A stretch of DNA of 64,000 nucleotides from Salmo salar (lineage: Eukaryota). The notes below the pieces were generated by a model. The model saw nothing but the letters and a program-made list of their open reading frames with translations. It was not told the DNA's origin and made no database searches. The translations under genes were made by a program, and so were the position numbers. Below are positions 10,560 through 39,900 of this stretch, one piece after another (within the stretch, counting starts at the first letter, position 1; every line of letters starts with the position of its first letter). Location: positions 51,942,644-52,006,643 of the forward strand of contig NC_059444.1 of assembly GCF_905237065.1 (NCBI RefSeq). Direction: 5' to 3'.

Positions 10560-11720
10560 GTCATGAAGTATCAAATCAAATAAAACTTTATTTGTTACAT
10601 GCGCCGAATACAACAGGTATTACCTTACCGTGAAATGCTTACTTACAAGCCCTTAACCAACAATGCAGTTCAAGAAAGAGTTAAGAAAATATTTACCAAA
10701 TAAACTAAAGTAAAAAATAATAAAAAGTAACAGAATAAAATAACAATAACAAGGCTATATACAGGGGGGTACTGGTACCGAGTCAATGTGCGGGGGTACA
10801 GGTTAGTCGAGGTAATTTGTACATGTAGGTAGGGGTAAAGTGACTATGCATAGATAATAAAGAGTCTCATGGCTTGGGGGTAGAAGGTGTTAAGGAGCCT
10901 TTTGGTCCTAGACTTTTTGGGCTTTCCTCTGACACTGCCTAGTATATAGTTCCTGGATGACAGGAAGCTTGGCCCCAGTGATGTACTAGGCCATATGCAC
11001 TACCCTCTGTAGCGCCTTACGATCAGATGCCGAGCAGTTGCCATACCAGGCGGTGATGCAACCGGTCATTATGCTCTTGATGGTGCAGCTGTAAAACTTT
11101 TTGAAGATCTGGGGACCCATGCCAAATCTTTTCAGTCTCCTGAGGGGGAAAAGGTGTTGTCGTGCCCTCTTCACAACTGTCTTGGTGTGTTTGGACGATG
11201 ATAGTTTGTTGGTGATGTGGACACCAAGGAACTTGAAACTCTCGACACGCTCCACTACATCCCCGTTGATGTTAATGAGGGCCTGTTCGGCCCTCCTTTT
11301 CCTGTAGTACACGATCAGCTCCTTTGTCTTGCTCACATTGAGGGAGAGGTTGTTGTCCTGGCACCACACTGCCAGGTCTCTGACCTCCTCCCTATAGGCT
11401 GTCTCATCGTTGTGGGTAATCAGGACTACCACTGTTGTGTCGTCAGCAAACTTAATGATGGTGTTGGAGTCGTGTTTGGCCACGCAGTCGTGGGTGAACA
11501 TGGAGTACAGGAGGGGACTAAGCACGCACCCCTGAGGGGCCCCAGTGTTGAGGATCAGCGTGGCAGACGTATTGTTACTTACCACCTGGGGCGGCCCGTT
11601 AGAAAGTCCAAGATCCAGTTGCAGACGGAGGTGTTTAGTCCCAGGGTCCTTAGCTTAATGATGAATTGTGTGGGCACTATGGTGTTGAACGCTGAGCTGT
11701 ATCCGACTCCTCCTTAAGAT
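10560..11720 (-). mobile_element. 5'-truncated L2-like LINE copy 1 (RT C-terminal domain plus 3' UTR)
   Basis: ORF 10986..11585 (-) carries RT motifs GAPQGCVLSPLLYSMFTHDC, FADDTTVV, FKFLGVHIT...FPLRRLKRFGMGPQIFKKFYSCTIKSIMTGCITAWYGNCSASDRKALQRVV. The 3' UTR 10560-10985 (tail ...gtaacaaataaagttttatttgatttga on the minus strand) is a common salmonid LINE tail. A second copy lies at 40570-43450. Confidence 0.75.
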
Positions 11721-29615: not shown

Positions 29616-29884
29616 CTAGCAGAGAGGAGAGGAGAGAGAGAGAGAAGGGACAGAGAGATAAGGAGAGGGAGGGAAAGTGAGAGAGAGAAGGGACAGAGAG
29701 ATAAGGAGAGGGAGGGAAAGTGAGAGAGAGAAAGAGTGAGACAGTGTGAAAGGACCGAATGTACATTGAATGGATTGTGTACCAGCCAAACCAGACAGTC
29801 CTGTTTAGGATCGTCGTTGTATTTGACTAAGGTCCATTTGTTTCCCCTCCCATCTGCATTTAAATTATTCCACCCTTACCTCAC

Positions 29885-30010
29885 CTCCTGTGTATCATTG
29901 AAGGCCTCTACGGCCCTCAGCACCAGGCCCTCCTCCTCAGAGAGAATATAGACGTCCTGGATGCCCTCCTCTAAGTGCTCCCCGGGCTGCAGGAAGAACG
30001 AACGCTCACC
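29885..30010 (-). CDS. mvp: MVP exon 7 [42 protein letters not shown]
   Basis: Compare human [41 protein letters not shown]. Acceptor tcctcccag|GGTGAG, donor CAGGAG|gtgagg. 126 nt. Confidence 0.9.
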
Positions 30011-30202
30011 CTGGGAGGAGGAGGAGAGAGAGCAGTGTTAAATTAAAGCTCATTGGGGAAGTGACTAAAAGCTACAAAGGCAAATTAATGAACAAACAGA
30101 AGTCACTGAACTTCCTCACCAGTGTGTAAAACGCCAACGAGTGACTAAACAAACAATTGACCAAACAAAGGAGTGAAAGACAGAGCTCTCTTTCAGACTC
30201 AC

Positions 30203-30439
30203 CTTGACCACCCTCTTCTGACCCAGCTGTGGTTTACCGTCTGGTCCCACCGGGTCCAGGATCACACAGTACTGACGTCTGCTCAGCGTGGTCACATTGA
30301 CCCCTCCCACCACTTCCTCGGCAACAGACGGGATGTGTGCCTCCCGCTCCGCCATGGTAACGAGCCACTCTTCCCCAGTGCGCCGGTCCCGCCCCCCGGC
30401 GTCACGGAATGGCCGTATTGCTCGCACATGCAGTGCTTT
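30203..30439 (-). CDS. mvp: MVP exon 6 [79 protein letters not shown]
   Basis: Compare human [80 protein letters not shown]. Acceptor ctctcag|AAAGCA, donor GTCAAG|gtgagt. 237 nt. Confidence 0.92.
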
Positions 30440-31043
30440 CTGAGAGTGAAAAAAAACATGAATTCATTTAGGCAGGTCCTAAGAAACATCATAAGACTAA
30501 TAAAATGTATTTTCAAAAGAATAGAAGAGCATATTGAGTTTAAATTAGGCCTTTGTTACAGGTCAGTGCATTTTTTATCCACATTTCAGCCCTTTCCTAA
30601 CCTCACTCACCCTCGTTAGGGAGAAGGCATAGGATCTTATCTTCATCATGATACCGATAGAAAATAATACCAATCCTATTTTCAAAAGCATGCGAGTGTC
30701 ATTCATATTTCACAACCTCCGCGGGTTTTTGGAGTTGGCTATACGCAAGCAAAATAATAGGCCTACTCTTGATTTAGGCTACATTATTGCATGCTCAGTG
30801 GCGACCCGTCATTCAGGGCTGCCCCACCCGTTTTGAGCCCCACATTTTGTCATTAATGCAAGATATATAGGAGAGAGAAGGAAGGTGGGAGAGAGTAAAG
30901 GAGGGAGGGAGTAAAGGAGGGAGGGGAGGGAAAGATAAAGGGAGAGAGAAGCGAGGGCGTAAGTGATAGGTAAAGTGTAAGAGAGAAGGAGGGAGGTGGG
31001 GAGTTCTGGATAAAGTGAGGGCGAGAGAGGAGAGAGGTGTTAC

Positions 31044-31138
31044 CTTGTCGGTGAGGATGAAAGCGTTGATGATGTCGAGGACCTCCTCATGAGCCCCTGG
31101 TAGATACGCCCCCACCTTTCTCACCTGCCACTCCTCAC
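31044..31138 (-). CDS. mvp: MVP exon 5 (G)[31 protein letters not shown]
   Basis: Compare human [32 protein letters not shown]. Acceptor tgtccag|GTGAGG, donor GACAAG|gtaaca. 95 nt, phase 1 to 0. Confidence 0.9.
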
Positions 31139-31278
31139 CTGGACACACGCATACAGGGAATCACTCAGCTAGGTAGGTGTGTGCGCACGTCTGTGTATGA
31201 TAGCGATACAACATCTGCTACTTGTGTACATACATTAAATGTACAATAAAAAAATAAAATACAGTACAAGTGTCTCAC

Positions 31279-31410
31279 CAGTGACCCTGCGGACTCCGCT
31301 CCTGTCCACTCCCTCCTTGCGCGCTCGGAGGCGAATGGCCTGGTTCTCTCTGATCACCGTGGCCTTGATGGTTTCCAGCACCGCCACCTCCTTCCTGGGG
31401 ATGTACGTCC
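31279..31410 (-). CDS. mvp: MVP exon 4 (G)[43 protein letters not shown](G)
   Basis: Compare human [45 protein letters not shown]. Acceptor ccccatag|GGACGT, donor CACTG|gtgaga. 132 nt, phase 1 to 1. The upstream 8.5-kb intron (31411-39900) contains the gypsy tandem array. Confidence 0.9.
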
Positions 31411-31760
31411 CTATGGGGAGGGAAGAGGTTAGGGGTCAGGGGTTAAAAAAAAGCATTATTAGGCAACCAGTGTCACGACTTCCACCAAAGTCGGTTCCTC
31501 TCCTTGTTCGGGCGGCGTTCGGCAGTCGACGTCACCGGTCTTCTAGCCATCGCCGATCCACCTTTAATTTTCCATTTGTTTTGTCTTGTTCTCCCACACA
31601 CCTGGTTTACATTCCCTCATTACTTGTCGTGTATATAACCCTCTGTTCTCCCCCATGTCTGTGTGTGGAATTGTTTGTTGTTAAATGATTGTGCACTTCT
31701 GACTGGTTCGCGACGGGTTCTTTGTACCCATATTTTGTTGTTCTGGATGCCGTTGGTCTT

Positions 31761-34700
31761 GCATATTAAACTGCTCCAGTTATTTCCCAGTTCTGCTCTC
31801 CTGCGTCTGACTTCCCTGCAACCAGTCACACCCCTCTTACAGAATTCCACACCTGAATATGGAGTGAGCAGGAGCAAGTGCCCCTGGTATAGGGTGTCGA
31901 GGAGCGCATCCGGGAGCACGCGGCGATGCTCCACCATCTCTGCGCCGCAATGGACCGCTGGGAGAGACAGGGAGTTCCTCTAGTGCCTCCACCAGCACAA
32001 CCGGGGTCTCCACTACTCACCCCCCTGCACCCGGTCCCAGTGGGATTCGTCTCGCCCTTCCCCGGGAGTACTGTGGGACAGCTGCATGTTGCCAGGGTTT
32101 CCTGTTGCAGCTGGATCTTTACCTGGCAACCGTCAACCCGGCTCCTTCGGGCCGTGAGAGGGTGTCCACCCTGGTCTCGTGTCTCTCGGGGAAAACCCTG
32201 GAGTGGGCCAACCCCGTGTGGGGAGAAGGCGATGCGGCGCTGGACCATTTAGAGGATTTCACTCGCCACTTCCGGGCAGTCTTCGAAACATGTCTCCGAT
32301 TCCCTGCGTCAGGGGTTCATTTGGTCCTCTACTTCACCCGCCTCCTTGAGTTTCTTTTTTGTGAAGAAAAAGGAGGGAGGTCTGCGCCCGTGTATTGACT
32401 TCGAGGCCTAAACCAGATCACTGTGAGATACAGTTACCCGCTACCTCTCATAGCCACAGCGATTGAGTCAATGCACGGGGCGCACTTCTTCACCAAACTA
32501 GATCTCAGGAGCGCTTACAACCTGGTGCGTATCCGGGATGGAGACGAGTGGAAGACGACGTTCAGTACTACTCAGGGCATTATGAGAACCTCGTCATGCC
32601 GTACGGGTTGATGAATGCTCCATCAGTCTTCCAAGCCTTTGTAGACAAGATTTTTAGGGACCTGCACGGCCAGGGTGTAGTGGTGTATATTGATGACATT
32701 CTGATTTACTCCGCTACACGCGCCGAGCATGTGTCCCTGGTGTGCAGGGCGCTTGGTCGACTGTTGGAGCATGACCTGTACGTCAAGGTTGAGAAATGCC
32801 TGTTCTTCCAGCAGTCCGTCTCCTTCCTAGGGTACCGCATTTCCACCTCAGGGGTGGAGATGAAGAGTGACCGCATTTCAGCCGTGTGTAATTGGCCGAC
32901 TCCCACCACGGTAAAGGAGGTGCAGCGGTTTCTAGGGTTTGCCAATTACTACCAGAGGTTTAGCCGGGGTTTTGGTCAGGTAGCGGCTCCCATTACCGCA
33001 CTGCTGAAGGGGGGCACGGTACGTTTGCAGTGGTCGGCTGAGGCGGACAGGGCTTTTGGTCACCTGAGGGCTCCGTTTACCTCGGCTCCCGTGCTGGCCC
33101 ATCCGGATCCCTCTTTGGCGTTCATAGTGGAGGTGGACGTGTCTGAGGCTGGGATAGGAGCCGTGCTCTCTCAGCGCCCCGGTACGCCACCGAAGCTCCG
33201 CCCCTGTGCCTTCTTCGAGGAAGCTCAGCCCGGCGGAGTGAAACTATGACGTGGGGGACCGGGAGCTGTTGGTTGTCGTCAAGGCGTGGAGACATTGGCT
33301 TGAGGGAGCTAAACACTCTTTTCTCATCCGGACTGACCACCGCAATCTGGAGTACATCCGGGCAGCGAGGAGACTGAACCCTCGCCAGGCAAGGTGGGCC
33401 ATGTTTTTCAACCGTTTTCTTTTCATCCTTTCTTACAGACCAGGTTCCCAGAACGTGAAGGCAGATGCACTGTCCCGGCTCTATGACACAGAGGAGCGAC
33501 CCATGGATCCCATCCCCATACTCCCGGCCTCCTGCCTGTGAGGGAGGGAGCTGGACGCGGACATTGAGCAGGCATTAGGTGCAGAGCCCGCTCCCCTCCA
33601 GTGTCCCGCTGGGCATCTGTACGTTCCGTCTGCCGTCCGTGACCGGCTGATCTATTGGGCCCACACGTCACCCTCCTCTGGTCATCCAGGCATCGGTCGG
33701 ACGGTGCGCTATCTGAGTGGGAAGTACTGGTGGCCCACTTTGGCTAAGGACGTGAGGGTTTATGTTTCCTCCTGCTCAGTATGCGCCCAGTGTAAGGCTC
33801 CTCGGCACCTGCCCAGAGGTAAGCTACACCCCTTGCCCGTTCCACAACGGCCTTGGTTGCACCTGTCGGTCGATTTCCTTACCGATCTTCCGCCCTCACA
33901 GGGTAACAAAATGATCCTGGTCGTTGTGGACAGTTTTTCCAAGTCCTGCCGTCTCCTCCCTCTGCCCGGACTCCCTACGGCCCTACAGACTGCGGAGGCC
34001 TTGTTTACACACGTCTTCCGGCACTACAGGGTGCCTGAGGATATAGTGTCTGATCGGGGTCCCTAGTTCACTTCGAGGGTCTGGAGGGCGTTCATGGAAC
34101 GTCTGGGGTCTCGATCAGCCTTACCTCGGGTTTTCACCCGAGAGTAACAGGCAGGTGGAGAGAGTTAACCAGGATGTGGGTAGGTTTCTGCGGTCTTATT
34201 GCCAGGACTGGCCGGGGGAGTGGGCAGCGTTCGTGCCCTGGGCAGAGATGGCCCAGAACTCGCGTGGCCACTCCTCCACTAACCTTTCTCCCTTCCAGTG
34301 CGTACTGGGGTATCAGCCGGTTCTGGCTCCTCGGCAATTAGAGTCAGACCGAGGCTCCTGCGGTGGACGACTGGTTTCGGCGCGCGGAGGAGACATGGGA
34401 CGCCGCCCATGTTCACCTTCAGCGCGCCGTGCTGCGGCAGAAAGCCAGCGCAGACCGTCACCGCAGTGAGGCCCCGGTGTTCGCACCGGGTCTGGCTCTC
34501 GACCCGAAACCTGCCCCTCAGCCTGCCCTGCCGGAAGCTGGGTCCGCGGTTTGTGGGGCCGTTTAAAGTCCTGAGGAGACTGAACGAGGTGTGTTACAGG
34601 TTACAGCTCCCCCCCCAATTACCTTATTAACCTCTTCGCTATAGGGGGCAGTATTTTCACGGCCGGATAAAAAACGTACCCAATATAAACAGGTTACTAC

Positions 34701-35618
34701 TCTGGCTCAGAAACTAGAATATGCACATTATTAGTAGATTTGGATAGAAAACACTCTGGAGTTTCTAAAACTGTTTGAATGGTGTCTGTGAGTATAACAG
34801 AACTCATATGGCAGCCAAAAACCTGAGAAAATTCCAAGCAGGAAGTGGCCTGTCAGAATGTGTTCTTCTTTTGGTTCTCTATCTAAACTACAGTATCTGT
34901 GCTGTTACGTAGCACTTTCTAAGGCTTCCATTGTCTCTCTAAAGCCTTCAGAAAGTGGATTGAGGCGTCTCCTGTCTCTGGGCAGAGTTTTGTAGCTCAG
35001 TTTGTCAGTGGTCTGCCTGGTGACTAAGAGATTGGATATGCGCATTCACAAGACCACGCTGTTTTTTCTTTTCCTCTTTGAATGAATACACTATTGTCCG
35101 GTTGGAATATTAAATCGCTATTTTACGAGAAAAATACCATAAAAATGTATTTTAAACAGCGTTTGACAGGCTTCTAAGTACGGTAAAGGAACATTTAGAT
35201 TTTTTTGTCTCGAAGGTATTTGGAAATAACTATGGATTATTTGGAACAAAAACATTTCTTGTTGAAGTAGCAGTCCTGGGAGTGCATTCTGACGAATTTT
35301 TCTTATAGTAAATCTGAGTTTAGTGAGCCCTGAACTTGGCGGGTGTCAAAATAGCTAGCCGTGATGGCTGAGCTATGTACTCAGAATATTGCAAAATGTG
35401 CTTTCGCCGAAAAGCCATTTTAAAATCTGACATAGCGATTGCATAAAGGAGTTCTGTATCTATAATTCTTAAAATAATTATGTATTTTGTCAACGTTTAT
35501 GATGAGTAATTTAGTAAATTCACAGGAAGTTTTAGGTGGGAATGCATGTTCTGAACATCACATGCTAATGTAAAAAGCTGTTTTTTGATATAAATATGAA
35601 CTTGATTGAACAAAACAT
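31761..35618 (+). mobile_element. Tandem-duplicated unit 1: degenerate Ty3/gypsy LTR-retrotransposon fragment (gag piece, RT, RNase H, integrase N-terminus; multiply frameshifted) plus an ~1 kb X-family repeat (34625-35618)
   Basis: ORFs 32105..32398 (...[35 protein letters not shown], gypsy Gag core), 32548..33249 ([20 protein letters not shown]...[12 protein letters not shown]...[17 protein letters not shown]), 33251..33541 (RNase [17 protein letters not shown]...[15 protein letters not shown]), 33704..34066 (integrase HHCC finger: [38 protein letters not shown]...[20 protein letters not shown]) and 34155..34630 (integrase core continuation, frameshifted). Unit 2 is identical apart from about 3 differences. 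Confidence 0.85.
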
Positions 35619-38600
35619 GCATGTTAAACTGCTCCAGTTATTTCCCAGTTCTGCTCTCCTGCGTCTGACTTCCCTGCAACCAGTCACACCCCTCTTACAG
35701 AATTCCACACCTGAATATGGAGTGAGCAGGAGCAAGTGCCCCTGGTATAGGGTGTCGAGGAGCGCATCCGGGAGCACGCGGCGATGCTCCACCATCTCTG
35801 CGCCGCAATGGACCGCTGGGAGAGACAGGGAGTTCCTCTAGTGCCTCCACCAGCACAACCGGGGTCTCCACTACTCACCCCCCTGCACCCGGTCCCAGTG
35901 GGATTCGTCTCGCCCTTCCCCGGGAGTACTGTGGGACAGCTGCATGTTGCCAGGGTTTCCTGTTGCAGCTGGATCTTTACCTGGCAACCGTCAACCCGGC
36001 TCCTTCGGGCCGTGAGAGGGTGTCCACCCTGGTCTCGTGTCTCTCGGGGAAAACCCTGGAGTGGGCCAACCCCGTGTGGGGAGAAGGCGATGCGGCGCTG
36101 GACCATTTAGAGGATTTCACTCGCCACTTCCGGGCAGTCTTCGAAACATGTCTCCGATTCCCTGCGTCAGGGGTTCATTTGGTCCTCTACTTCACCCGCC
36201 TCCTTGAGTTTCTTTTTTGTGAAGAAAAAGGAGGGAGGTCTGCGCCCGTGTATTGACTTCGAGGCCTAAACCAGATCACTGTGAGATACAGTTACCCGCT
36301 ACCTCTCATAGCCACAGCGATTGAGTCAATGCACGGGGCGCACTTCTTCACCAAACTAGATCTCAGGAGCGCTTACAACCTGGTGCGTATCCGGGATGGA
36401 GACGAGTGGAAGACGACGTTCAGTACTACTCAGGGCATTATGAGAACCTCGTCATGCCGTACGGGTTGATGAATGCTCCATCAGTCTTCCAAGCCTTTGT
36501 AGACAAGATTTTTAGGGACCTGCACGGCCAGGGTGTAGTGGTGTATATTGATGACATTCTGATTTACTCCGCTACACGCGCCGAGCATGTGTCCCTGGTG
36601 TGCAGGGCGCTTGGTCGACTGTTGGAGCATGACCTGTACGTCAAGGTTGAGAAATGCCTGTTCTTCCAGCAGTCCGTCTCCTTCCTAGGGTACCGCATTT
36701 CCACCTCAGGGGTGGAGATGAAGAGTGACCGCATTTCAGCCGTGTGTAATTGGCCGACTCCCACCACGGTAAAGGAGGTGCAGCGGTTTCTAGGGTTTGC
36801 CAATTACTACCAGAGGTTTAGCCGGGGTTTTGGTCAGGTAGCGGCTCCCATTACCGCACTGCTGAAGGGGGGCACGGTACGTTTGCAGTGGTCGGCTGAG
36901 GCGGACAGGGCTTTTGGTCACCTGAGGGCTCCGTTTACCTCGGCTCCCGTGCTGGCCCATCCGGATCCCTCTTTGGCGTTCATAGTGGAGGTGGACGTGT
37001 CTGAGGCTGGGATAGGAGCCGTGCTCTCTCAGCGCCCCGGTACGCCACCGAAGCTCCGCCCCTGTGCCTTCTTCGAGGAAGCTCAGCCCGGCGGAGTGAA
37101 ACTATGACGTGGGGGACCGGGAGCTGTTGGTTGTCGTCAAGGCGTGGAGACATTGGCTTGAGGGAGCTAAACACTCTTTTCTCATCCGGACTGACCACCG
37201 CAATCTGGAGTACATCCGGGCAGCGAGGAGACTGAACCCTCGCCAGGCAAGGTGGGCCATGTTTTTCAACCGTTTTCTTTTCATCCTTTCTTACAGACCA
37301 GGTTCCCAGAACGTGAAGGCAGATGCACTGTCCCGGCTCTATGACACAGAGGAGCGACCCATGGATCCCATCCCCATACTCCCGGCCTCCTGCCTGTGAG
37401 GGAGGGAGCTGGACGCGGACATTGAGCAGGCATTAGGTGCAGAGCCCGCTCCCCTCCAGTGTCCCGCTGGGCATCTGTACGTTCCGTCTGCTGTCCGTGA
37501 CCGGCTGATCTATTGGGCCCACACGTCACCCTCCTCTGGTCATCCAGGCATCGGTCGGACGGTGCGCTATCTGAGTGGGAAGTACTGGTGGCCCACTTTG
37601 GCTAAGGACGTGAGGGTTTATGTTTCCTCCTGCTCAGTATGCGCCCAGTGTAAGGCTCCTCGGCACCTGCCCAGAGGTAAGCTACACCCCTTGCCCGTTC
37701 CACAACGGCCTTGGTTGCACCTGTCGGTCGATTTCCTTACCGATCTTCCGCCCTCACAGGGTAACAAAATGATCCTGGTCGTTGTGGACAGTTTTTCCAA
37801 GTCCTGCCGTCTCCTCCCTCTGCCCGGACTCCCTACGGCCCTACAGACTGCGGAGGCCTTGTTTACACACGTCTTCCGGCACTACAGGGTGCCTGAGGAT
37901 ATAGTGTCTGATCGGGGTCCCTAGTTCACTTCGAGGGTCTGGAGGGCGTTCATGGAACGTCTGGGGGTCTCGATCAGCCTTACCTCGGGTTTTCACCCGA
38001 GAGTAACAGGCAGGTGGAGAGAGTTAACCAGGATGTGGGTAGGTTTCTGCGGTCTTATTGCCAGGACTGGCCGGGGGAGTGGGCAGCGTTCGTGCCCTGG
38101 GCAGAGATGGCCCAGAACTCGCGTGGCCACTCCTCCACTAACCTTTCTCCCTTCCAGTGCGTACTGGGGTATCAGCCGGTTCTGGCTCCTCGGCAATTAG
38201 AGTCAGACCGAGGCTCCTGCGGTGGACGACTGGTTTCGGCGCGCGGAGGAGACATGGGACGCCGCCCATGTTCACCTTCAGCGCGCCGTGCTGCGGCAGA
38301 AAGCCAGCGCAGACCGTCACCGCAGTGAGGCCCCGGTGTTCGCACCGGGTCTGGCTCTCGACCCGAAACCTGCCCCTCAGCCTGCCCTGCCGGAAGCTGG
38401 GTCCGCGGTTTGTGGGGCCGTTTAAAGTCCTGAGGAGACTGAACGAGGTGTGTTACAGGTTACAGCTCCCCCCCCAATTACCTTATTAACCTCTTCGCTA
38501 TAGGGGGCAGTATTTTCACGGCCGGATAAAAAAACGTACCCAATATAAACAGGTTACTACTCTGGCTCAGAAACTAGAATATGCACATTATTAGTAGATT

Positions 38601-39476
38601 TGGATAGAAAACACTCTGGAGTTTCTAAAACTGTTTGAATGGTGTCTGTGAGTATAACAGAACTCATATGGCAGCCAAAAACCTGAGAAAATTCCAAGCA
38701 GGAAGTGGCCTGTCAGAATGTGTTCTTCTTTTGGTTCTCTATCTAAACTACAGTATCTGTGCTGTTACGTAGCACTTTCTAAGGCTTCCATTGTCTCTCT
38801 AAAGCCTTCAGAAAGTGGATTGAGGCGTCTCCTGTCTCTGGGCAGAGTTTTGTAGCTCAGTTTGTCAGTGGTCTGCCTGGTGACTAAGAGATTGGATATG
38901 CGCATTCACAAGACCACGCTGTTTTTTCTTTTCCTCTTTGAATGAATACACTATTGTCCGGTTGGAATATTAAATCGCTATTTTACGAGAAAAATACCAT
39001 AAAAATGTATTTTAAACAGCGTTTGACAGGCTTCTAAGTACGGTAAAGGAACATTTAGATTTTTTTTGTCTCGAAGGTATTTGGAAATAACTATGGATTA
39101 TTTGGAACAAAAACATTTCTTGTTGAAGTAGCAGTCCTGGGAGTGCATTCTGACGAATTTTTCTTATAGTAAATCTGAGTTTAGTGAGCCCTGAACTTGG
39201 CGGGTGTCAAAATAGCTAGCCGTGATGGCTGAGCTATGTACTCAGAATATTGCAAAATGTGCTTTCGCCGAAAAGCCATTTTAAAATCTGACATAGCGAT
39301 TGCATAAAGGAGTTCTGTATCTATAATTCTTAAAATAATTATGTATTTTGTCAACGTTTATGATGAGTAATTTAGTAAATTCACAGGAAGTTTTAGGTGG
39401 GAATGCATGTTCTGAACATCACATGCTAATGTAAAAAGCTGTTTTTTGATATAAATATGAACTTGATTGAACAAAA
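35619..39476 (+). mobile_element. Tandem-duplicated unit 2 (about 99.9% identical to unit 1), followed by a partial third start (39477-39556)
   Basis: Every ORF of unit 1 recurs with a +3858 offset (for example 32548..33249 equals 36406..37107). The differences seen are R/Q at ORF 33423/37281, an extra g at about 37962 and an extra a at about 38523. The ~78-bp segment 'aaactgctccagttatttcccagttctgctctcctgcgtctgacttccctgcaaccagtcac..' occurs at 31768, 35626 and 39486, giving an A-B-A-B-A' layout. Confidence 0.9.
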
Positions 39477-39900
39477 CATGCATGTAAACTGCTCCGGTTA
39501 TTTCCCAGTTCTGCTCTCCTGCGTCTGACTTCCCTGCAACCAGTCACGCACCTCTTACAACCAGGCTGTGTTTGGAATCGGGTACTACATACTGTTTGGA
39601 ATGTACTACGTGTCTACTACTTGTTATTTTTTTACTTGACTTTGATTATATTGTCGAGGGAGCTTGCAATAAAGTATTTCACTGAACCTTTTATACCTGC
39701 TGTAAACTGTGCAAGTGATGAATAAAATTGGATTTGACTTCAGCCAGTCAAATTAGAAACAAATTGAAAGAGCACTAGCTATCTCGTTAAAACGATGCTC
39801 TGATTTGGTTAAAAAAAAATGCATTTATCAATATGAATGCATGTAAGGACCCAAGGAAAGTTGTAATGGATGTGTTAGGAGTTGAACCCAGAGAACTCAC

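Follow-up and report, generated by a model that had tools for sequence, protein, structure and literature searches.

What kind of element is a non-coding repeat that recurs at five places within 64,000 nucleotides of the Atlantic salmon (Salmo salar) genome (this whole stretch of analysed DNA being called the window), and is it new? A sequence-only reading had held it to be unclassified and to match no familiar salmonid repeat. This was wrong; the copies match the published elements pTSsa1 and pTSsa2 (DTSsa13 and DTSsa14). Judged from its sequence, the repeat very probably is the salmonid pTSsa family (pTSsa1/pTSsa2), which comprises ~1.4-kb non-coding, non-autonomous class II elements assigned to the piggyBac superfamily. 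The family has been known since its publication in 2007 (de Boer et al., 2007; PMC2198921), and the repeat is thus a real but ordinary one. The identification is based on the identity to published copies, on terminal inverted repeats (TIRs) with TTAA at the junctions, on insertions in four independent contexts and on zero coding capacity.

Relationship to the published pTSsa elements

The elements pTSsa1 and pTSsa2, named DTSsa13 and DTSsa14 in the supplement of de Boer et al. (2007; BMC Genomics 8:422, PMC2198921), are characterized in Table 1 of that paper by the insertion site TTAA, an inverted terminal repeat of ~22 bp with the end CCTG, a length of ~1440 bp, the lack of an open reading frame (ORF) and the presence of the NheI repeat. 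Their published ends are 5'-CCTG/CCTC...GAGG-3' with inverted repeats of ~18–22 bp, and 80–85% identity is the level that delimits the pTSsa1/2 groups (PMC2198921). With the 75 published copies in supplementary file 3 of the same paper as reference set, we searched the window for family members by blastn and with an nhmmer profile. The published features (TTAA target, ends, TIRs, length of ~1.44 kb, no ORF) were all recovered in the window family.

At least five copies had been proposed. Related sequence is indeed found at all five places by both blastn and nhmmer (copies A, A', B, C, and D), but a tandem duplication of 3,858 bp holds both A and A', which leaves four independent insertions in the window. 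A shared 21-mer, GTCTGTGAGTATAACAGAACT, occurs four times exactly and once with three mismatches, where zero occurrences are expected. Going by their sequences, copies A and B are of the pTSsa1 type, with C and D as older relatives; an identity of ~80–85% over the whole or nearly the whole element is reached by A and B and not by C and D (68–76%). It had also been considered that a database might annotate the repeat as the 3' UTR of a known element. A published annotation does exist, but it is that of an independent DNA transposon. The description of the repeat as an interspersed, non-coding, non-autonomous mobile family has held.

Insertion contexts in the window

Copy A (34631..35624, plus strand; nhmmer hmm 2–1082, E=4e-248) is pTSsa1-type and consists of the 5' part only (family positions ~1–1064): its 994 bp cover only the 5' 1,064 positions of the ~1.4-kb element, with 84.0% identity to positions 1–1064 of DTSsa13-6. 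The TTAA target is located at 34627–34630 and the 5' junction reads CCTTATTAA/CCTCTTCGCTATAGGGGGCAG. The copy sits in the C-terminal SH3 domain of the integrase of a Ty3/Gypsy element (Pfam SH3_Tf2-1 match in an ORF ending at 34630), and lacks its 3' end, the break being joined to the final 75 bp of the Gypsy 3' LTR. This host of A and A' is a Ty3/Gypsy LTR retrotransposon (31471..39559, plus strand) with a 5-bp target site duplication (TSD), ACCAG, at 31466–31470 and 39560–39564, a 5' LTR at 31471–31841 and 75-bp LTR tails at 35625–35699 and 39485–39559. Copy A' (38490..39484, plus strand), with the identical 5' junction, duplicates the insertion of copy A: positions 31760–35699 recur as 35618–39559 with 99.77% identity, and this 3,858-bp tandem duplication contains A, A' and Gypsy host sequence. 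The region 38485–39476 had already been taken for a duplicate, correctly so, as it is the same insertion inside the tandem unit. Unequal recombination of the 5' LTR with a 3'-LTR remnant of the Gypsy host, and not transposition, gave rise to the A/A' pair.

Could all copies owe their existence to segmental duplication rather than to transposition? This is the case for A and A' (34.6 and 38.5 kb), which share both flanks in the 99.77% identical 3,858-bp unit. As an explanation for the family it is, however, highly improbable: the other flanks are unrelated (Gypsy integrase, LINE tail, Tc1-like element, unique sequence), the copies differ by 10–50% depending on the segment, and three family loci found elsewhere in a metagenome scan (L001–L003) have yet other flanks.

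Transposition into a LINE can be followed with copy B, a full-length pTSsa1-type element with both ends (40687..42056, minus strand; nhmmer hmm 3–1445). A reverse copy had been placed at 40690–42054; it is present, and its true span, 42056..40687, is close to that. Copy B is 93.6% identical to positions 2–1325 of DTSsa13-135 over 1,355 aligned columns and 88.3% identical to DTSsa13-1, DTSsa13-135 being a published Salmo salar copy of pTSsa1 (PMC2198921). It is flanked by TTAA at 42060–42057 and at 40686–40683, carries four extra bases, CAAA (42056–42053), ahead of its CCTG terminus and has suffered a deletion of ~62 bp near the 3' end, with which one arm of a subterminal palindrome is gone; after this 62-bp deletion its length is 1,366–1,370 bp. 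Copy B is located in the 3' tail of the LINE, ~155 bp upstream of an exon of the major vault protein (MVP) gene on the same strand. The reverse transcriptase ORFs and the upstream 3' UTR of the LINE extend over 42061..43443 (minus strand; RVT_1 match on 42997–43443), and the remainder of its tail beyond copy B over 40682..~40570. The host LINE shows 83% identity to a LINE copy at 10707–11701, and an uninterrupted paralogue of its 3' tail (10590..10790, minus strand; collinear alignment) represents an "empty site" for copy B. When the flanks of copy B are joined on one TTAA they align collinearly with it (...TTTTTCTTAAA--ACATTGTTGGTTAAGGGC vs. ...CTTTCTTGAACTGCATTGTTGGTTAAGGGC), the paralogue having TTGA where the flanks rejoin on the single TTAA. 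Comparison with the uninterrupted paralogue at 10.6–10.8 kb thus confirms the earlier proposal of a LINE 3' tail split by one of the copies.

All copies in the window are found in or near introns of the MVP gene. Salmonid orthologues of the locus were sought via the adjacent MVP exon, which yielded 53 exon-sized matches. Three MVP loci that were fetched match the window only in exons, with 81–86% nucleotide identity, and not one of the 53 MVP peptides shares the intron-derived residues of the window; all were therefore judged to come from other, non-salmonid fishes.

Copies C and D are old, diverged members of the family. Copy C (61660..62655, plus strand, ~1.0 kb; nhmmer hmm 5–830 plus 1155–1437) has two degenerate termini; its identity to the references is 76–83% within no more than the first ~200 bp and 66–70% elsewhere. 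A copy had been seen at 61655–62610, which is right as to its presence, but the real span is the one given here and one internal ~390-bp unit is missing. Its 3' end has the CGCTAGCGGAACG variant in common with DTOmy13-1 and DTSsa13-183, after which follow a Tc1-like 5' region and a helix-turn-helix domain (HTH_SB at 62795–62959). Copy D (63226..64000, plus strand; nhmmer hmm 3–772, E=3e-132) is cut by the end of the window at approximately family position 770 and shows 68–75% identity to the references. It, too, had been noticed, at 63235–64000, but really starts at 63226, after a TTAA (63222–63225), the junction being GCTAAGTTAA/CTCTTTATAGATAGGGGGCAG. Both copies have degenerate ends but have kept the conserved 5' 200 bp; their overall identity is below 76%. 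The ~200-bp 5' module is 80–90% identical and the interior has drifted to 50–65%. One may tentatively, and with considerable doubt, think of C, D, and DTOmy13-1, the single published copy from O. mykiss (PMC2198921), as an older, unnamed pTSsa lineage that predates pTSsa1/2, with the 5' module as a candidate cis-site for a piggyBac-type transposase; the latter may come from among the ~75 piggyBac-like genes of salmon.

Termini, interior and the source of the transposase

The family had been described as having no obvious TIRs, which does not hold: full copies start with TTAA and then CCTGTTGGGGCTAGGGGG and finish with CCACCTAGCCC..AGAGG before TTAA. The TIRs are imperfect and ~18–22 bp long (5'-CCTGTTGGGGCTAGGGGG ... 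CCACCTAGCCCnnAGAGG-3'). For example, 16 of 18 positions pair in a pTSsa2 copy, 16 of 18 in the metagenome locus L003 (TTAA excluded) and 17 of the 17 aligned terminal bases in DTSsa13-6 (TTAA included), and in copy B AACCTGTTGGGGCTAGGGGGCA matches the reverse complement of the 3' end AACCTCCCTGGGCAAGGTGGGA at 15 of 22 positions. With CCTG/CCTC ... GAGG/CAGG and short TIRs, the termini are of the piggyBac form 5'-CCY...RGG-3'. Copy A begins with CCTC, and so do DTSsa13-52 and DTSsa13-74 of the published set. In the 75 sequences of that set TTAACCTGT is found 49 times and AGAGGTTAA 40 times. The 5' terminus varies, TTAAAACCT being present in L001 and in 3 of the 75 published copies and CAAA separating TTAA from CCTG in copy B.

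Inspection of the copy ends for TSDs revealed TTAA: it flanks L003 on either side and is also seen at the 3' junction in copy B and in L002 and at the 5' junction in copy A and in copy D, copy B being the only one in the window in which both junctions are intact. No duplication beyond TTAA (TA, TWA, and 8 bp were considered) was found in the flanks of copy B and of the metagenome loci.

The element opens with the conserved ~200-bp 5' module, after which come two ~390-bp units in an ancient tandem arrangement; a third internal unit was sought in the 5' 600 bp and not found. The first 200 profile positions are 80–90% identical among the window copies and positions 200–600 only 49–62% identical between diverged pairs, so that the window copies show the published trait of stronger conservation in the first ~200 bp. 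The lack of an ORF in the family has been corroborated, there being no ORF homologue, Pfam domain, tRNA or Rfam match. The longest ORF of copy B (131 amino acids) has neither a homologue nor a Pfam match, and this spurious ORF as query for further copies in protein databases gave zero matches. ARAGORN found no tRNA genes in the element and Rfam nothing above chance. A subterminal 3' palindrome in DTSsa13-6 (-14 kcal/mol, z = -5.1) was considered as a functional hairpin and dropped, since pTSsa2 and the window copies have not conserved it (z about 0).

These properties bear on three other readings that had been offered, a SINE-like unit, a solo LTR, or a Helitron fragment, all of which are rejected in view of the TIRs, the TTAA flanks and the CCT...AGG ends. 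A SINE-like or LINE-dependent retroposon would likewise be non-coding and interspersed, and one copy does lie in a LINE tail. This reading has next to no probability: the element is without a tRNA-like head, an Rfam match, a poly-A or a LINE-derived tail (the reported absence of poly-A was verified on copy B, which has no A-rich tail), it has TIRs and a fixed TTAA flank, and the host LINE is merely interrupted, its flanks rejoining collinearly. Equally negligible is an origin as solo LTR of an unknown endogenous retrovirus or as Helitron fragment, even though ~1.4 kb would suit an LTR and the subterminal 3' palindrome of some members superficially resembles a Helitron hairpin. The ends are CCT...AGG and neither TG...CA nor TC...CTRR; TTAA is found on both sides, with no insertion between A and T and no arbitrary 4–6 bp TSD; an internal retroviral region is never attached in the 75 published copies; and neither pTSsa2 nor the window copies have preserved the palindrome. 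The search for a Helitron hairpin and a CTRR end was, accordingly, negative on all counts: CCT...AGG ends, TIRs and no conserved hairpin.

What remains is the question of which enzyme moves these DNA transposons. Only the ends speak to the superfamily: from the TTAA target and the CCY termini we infer that pTSsa belongs to piggyBac. A DDD transposase (Pfam DDE_Tnp_1_7) is not encoded, there being no coding capacity in any copy, and ORF and Pfam searches revealed neither a transposase nor a remnant in any window copy; this absence is expected because the element is a non-autonomous derivative. An autonomous partner sharing the TIRs was not found in the collections scanned and is not reported in PMC2198921 or PMC5544889, and nothing was found when bacterial and archaeal genomes and viral contigs were scanned for the conserved 21-mer, a 25-mer and a degenerate TIR pattern. 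The salmon genome has about 75 piggyBac-like transposase genes (PMC5544889). Endogenous alloherpesvirus-like elements are associated with some of the piggyBac-like genes of salmon. The ends of pTSsa would be bound by a DDD transposase of the piggyBac type that another place in the genome encodes, and the bound element would be excised and reinserted at TTAA by cut-and-paste in trans.

It is unlikely, if less so than the readings dismissed above, that pTSsa is a TTAA-targeting non-autonomous DNA transposon moved by a non-piggyBac or unknown transposase, the piggyBac label then reflecting mere resemblance. One could argue in this direction from the lack of a transposase or remnant in any copy, from the published assignment, which uses the TTAA target and CCT ends only, from termini that are CCTG/CCTC instead of the more common CCC, and from the 5' variant with extra AA or CAAA. 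Against this, the classical piggyBac signature consists of just these features together, a TTAA target with 5'-CCY ends and short TIRs that are slightly asymmetric, and the ~75 piggyBac-like salmon genes are a plausible source of the enzyme (PMC5544889).

Comparison with known elements

For annotation, the coordinates given here should be masked as pTSsa (piggyBac-like) and not as a new repeat class. The interest of the family lies in pTSsa2 being still polymorphic in Atlantic salmon (PMC7560756), in the family's having no known autonomous partner, and in the unusually conserved 5' 200 bp. What the window contributes is of minor weight: copies are nested in a LINE tail, a Gypsy integrase and, as it seems, a Tc1-like element, one has been copied along with an LTR-mediated tandem duplication, and two are old and diverged.

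With pTSsa1 (DTSsa13), copies A and B are collinear over their length and share the TTAA flank, the CCTG/CCTC terminus, the ~1.4-kb length, the conservation of the first ~200 bp and the non-coding character. They differ in the 3' truncation of copy A, which runs into an LTR remnant, and in the 62-bp 3' deletion of copy B; the 5' variant (C/A)AAA-CCTG of copy B also occurs in the published DTSsa13-135. Complete, intact pTSsa2 copies are found as insertion/deletion polymorphisms in Atlantic salmon populations, where the deletions called agree with a complete pTSsa2 except for a few bp, and pTSsa2 has recently been active in Salmo (Bertolotti et al., 2020; PMC7560756). The architecture and the 5' 200-bp module of pTSsa2 (DTSsa14; GenBank EF685967) are those of the window family, and the motif GCTTCCACTAGATGTCAACAGTCTTTAG is common to copies C and D, DTSsa14-124, and DTSsa14-130. 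However, C and D are only 68–76% identical to any DTSsa14 sequence, and copy C shares its 3' CGCTAGCGGAAC variant with DTOmy13-1 from O. mykiss.

The NheI repeat of Salmo was reportedly described by Goodier and Davidson in 1994 and is said to be deposited as GenBank L25409. De Boer et al. (2007; PMC2198921) count the 380-bp NheI repeat among the parts of pTSsa1/2. Inside these elements we find an ancient tandem duplication whose period is ~390 bp, located in the region reported to hold the NheI repeat.

Typical MITEs are smaller than pTSsa with its 1.4 kb, and internal similarity to a transposase gene was not detected. Non-autonomous derivatives of piggyBac elements such as human MER75 and MER85 are non-coding, have piggyBac-type ends and TTAA flanks, and are mobilized in trans. 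In its non-coding body, its piggyBac-type ends and its TTAA flanks pTSsa is like these derivatives.

Identity and ends of the repeat

When 34625-35618 was used as blastn query against the window, five related places including the query were found: a near-identical direct twin at 38484-39479 (99.8% identity), a reverse copy at 42054..40982 on the minus strand (81–87%), and partial 5′ matches at 61660-61850 and 63236-63561 (75–80%). The window contains four exact occurrences of a common 21-mer and one more with three mismatches, whereas shuffles contain none; this excess and the blastn matches show that the repeat is real. A profile HMM of the family (nine published and two metagenome copies) recovered exactly these five members, copies A, A′ (the duplicate of A), B, C, and D, and no further family fragments in the window.

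The family is not new. Two salmonid piggyBac-like families, pTSsa1 and pTSsa2, were described that insert at TTAA, are about 1440 bp long with inverted terminal repeats (ITR) of about 18–22 bp ending in CCTG, lack an ORF or protein motif, are often nested in other transposons and contain the 380-bp NheI repeat (GenBank L25409), a core that goes back to 1994 by citation in the same paper (de Boer et al., 2007; PMC2198921). Compared with the reference copies in the supplementary FASTA of that paper (DTSsa13-n for pTSsa1, DTSsa14-n for pTSsa2), 42055..40711 in copy B matches DTSsa13-135 at 93.6% identity across 1,355 aligned columns and DTSsa13-1 at 88.3%, and 34627-35624 in copy A is 84.0% identical to positions 1-1064 of DTSsa13-6. 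The sequence-only reading, which saw no obvious match to salmonid repeats, was thus mistaken on this point; the family is real and mobile, as it saw, but was published in 2007 and is therefore already known. Atlantic salmon carry insertion/deletion polymorphisms that consist of intact pTSsa2 copies (Bertolotti et al., 2020; PMC7560756), which indicates recent activity.

A single scan of metagenome contigs found three loci with the 21-mer, presumably fish host DNA, with the 5′ end TTAACCTGTTAGGGCTAGGGGGCAG and the 3′ end ...GGTGGCACGCTAGCGTCCCACCTAGCCCATAGAGGTTAA. One (L001) is 96.9% identical to DTSsa13-126 and another (L003) is 92.3% identical to DTSsa14-4 over the full length. Two ENA 'metagenome' assemblies, ERZ1023261 and ERZ1023313, evidently include DNA from a salmonid host. 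L003, on an ERZ1023313 contig, is a full-length pTSsa2 with TTAA on both sides, flanked by fragments from two distinct Tc1-like families, and illustrates how densely transposable elements (TEs) are nested.

Terminal inverted repeats (TIRs) had been overlooked. Alignment of the 5′ end with the reverse complement of the same copy's 3′ end revealed imperfect TIRs of about 18–22 bp in family copies, with 16/18 matches in L003 and in DTSsa14-4, 17/17 aligned terminal bases in DTSsa13-6 (TTAA counted in), and 15/22 in copy B, the full copy of the window. The latter, read on the minus strand, extends about 300 bp past the stop point of the 994-bp copy; its 3′ end is ...GTCCCACCTTGCCCAGGGAGG followed by TTAA and aacattgttggttaaggg, and its 5′ end is ttcTTAA followed by CAAA and CCTGTTGGGGCTAGGGGGCAG. 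In 75 published copies TTAACCTGT was counted 49 times and AGAGGTTAA 40 times; copy A starts with the rarer form TTAACCTCT, common to DTSsa13-52 and DTSsa13-74. The 5′ junction of copy B (42053-42060, minus strand) is TTAA-CAAA-CCTG in place of TTAA-CCTG. DTSsa13-135 begins with AAAACCTG (AAAA-CCTG), and TTAAAACCT (TTAA-AA-CCT) was read in L001 and in 3/75 published copies. The extra bases may mark a subfamily with a variant terminus, or may be noise at the junction.

Internal structure and mobility

Searches of the element sequence gave no ORF homologue, Pfam domain, tRNA or Rfam match, in agreement with the earlier claim that there is no ORF. Published pTSsa copies and 40687-42056 of the window contain an ancient internal tandem duplication (period ~390 bp; ~620-1010 aligns with ~1015-1400 at about 61% identity; local alignment scores 106–133 versus a shuffle maximum of 49), whose units probably correspond to the NheI repeat. 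A subterminal 3′ palindrome, strong in DTSsa13-6 (−14 kcal/mol, z = −5.1), is conserved neither in pTSsa2 nor among the window copies, and therefore no function is attached to it.

The sequences show TIRs, TTAA flanks, unrelated flanks for each independent copy, nesting in other TEs and zero coding capacity. On the model of established piggyBac biology, the pTSsa ends would be bound by a DDD transposase acting in trans, which would excise the element and integrate it at TTAA. We know of no autonomous partner of pTSsa. About 75 piggyBac-like genes have been reported in salmon (PMC5544889), none tied to pTSsa TIRs. The SINE-like, solo-LTR and Helitron readings proposed from sequence alone each fail on their defining features, and segmental duplication accounts only for the A/A′ pair rather than for the whole family.

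Insertions in and near the MVP gene

Copy A (34631-35624; TTAA at 34627-34630) is inserted in the C-terminal SH3 domain of the integrase of a Ty3/Gypsy LTR retrotransposon, which spans 31471-39559 and has the 5-bp target site duplication (TSD) ACCAG on either side (31466-39564 including TSDs). The copy ends at family position ~1064, where it is joined, with microhomology GCAT.T, to a 75-bp remnant from the end of the Gypsy 3′ LTR. In an all-against-all comparison of the window, 31760-35699 equals 35618-39559 (99.77% identity), which reads as a 3,858-bp tandem duplication: the Gypsy interior and copy A are present twice with this period, the 75-bp LTR tail (35625-35699) between them, and copy A′ (38490-39484) lies in the second unit. 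Such a doubling is the product expected when the 5′ LTR recombines unequally with the 3′-LTR remnant, so copy A′ does not count as a transposition event. The array is a clean case of LTR-mediated unequal recombination following a deletion by which pTSsa became fused to the LTR tail. On the sequence alone, it may also be an assembly artefact. Related sequence is present at all five places claimed earlier, but because of the duplication those at 34.6 and 38.5 kb are one insertion, leaving four independent ones.

Copy B (42056..40687, minus strand) has lost 62 bp close to its 3′ end, is otherwise full length, and splits a LINE 3′ tail. Its flanks, joined on one TTAA, are collinear with an uninterrupted LINE tail at 10590-10790, which has TTGA at the insertion point; this confirms the insertion into a LINE 3′ UTR that had been proposed.

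Exons of major vault protein (MVP; minus strand, 29879-44041) lie at 44041-43913, 40533-40327, 40030-39899, 31411-31271, 31145-31011, 30463-30200, and 30037-29879. The exon at 40533 lies ~155 bp downstream of the end of copy B. The intron from 39899 to 31411 measures 8.5 kb; in another fish (L005) its counterpart has only 165 bp, and the Gypsy/pTSsa array essentially makes up the difference. Elsewhere in the window, a BEL/Pao LTR retrotransposon (47200-54118; LTRs 47200-47558 and 53760-54118, 98.3% identical) has an uninterrupted ORF of 1,563 aa (DUF1759, RVT_1, Peptidase_A17, Integrase_H2C2) and, after it, a 185-aa DUF5641 ORF; this element may be young and almost intact. A minus-strand ORF at 3975-4415 matches Pfam CD225 (CD225/dispanin domain, E = 2e-10) and probably belongs, as an exon, to a PRRT/TMEM-like gene.

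Divergent copies and the conserved 5′ region

Copy C (61660-62655) has kept both termini in degenerate form and, by the profile HMM, has lost one internal unit (~390 bp); its 3′ CGCTAGCGGAAC variant is common to DTOmy13-1 (from O. mykiss) and DTSsa13-183. Its flanks at 61440-61654 (inverted-repeat region) and 62656-62960 (5′ region and Sleeping Beauty-type HTH) resemble one Tc1-like element, in which copy C may be nested; no uninterrupted paralogue of this host was found within the window. Copy D (63226-64000) is preceded by TTAA and continues past the window end. Copies C and D, at most 76% identical overall to the published copies compared, are older relatives. In the first 200 positions they are 80–87% identical to the other copies and to each other, whereas beyond these they are only 49–65% identical to A and B. 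Across the lineages of copies A–D, the 5′ ~200 bp retain 80–90% identity while the interiors retain only 49–65%, and this region may be a cis-acting module. The window copies thereby show the same unexplained 5′ conservation as the published pTSsa1 and pTSsa2, of which the first 200 bp are unusually conserved (de Boer et al., 2007; PMC2198921).
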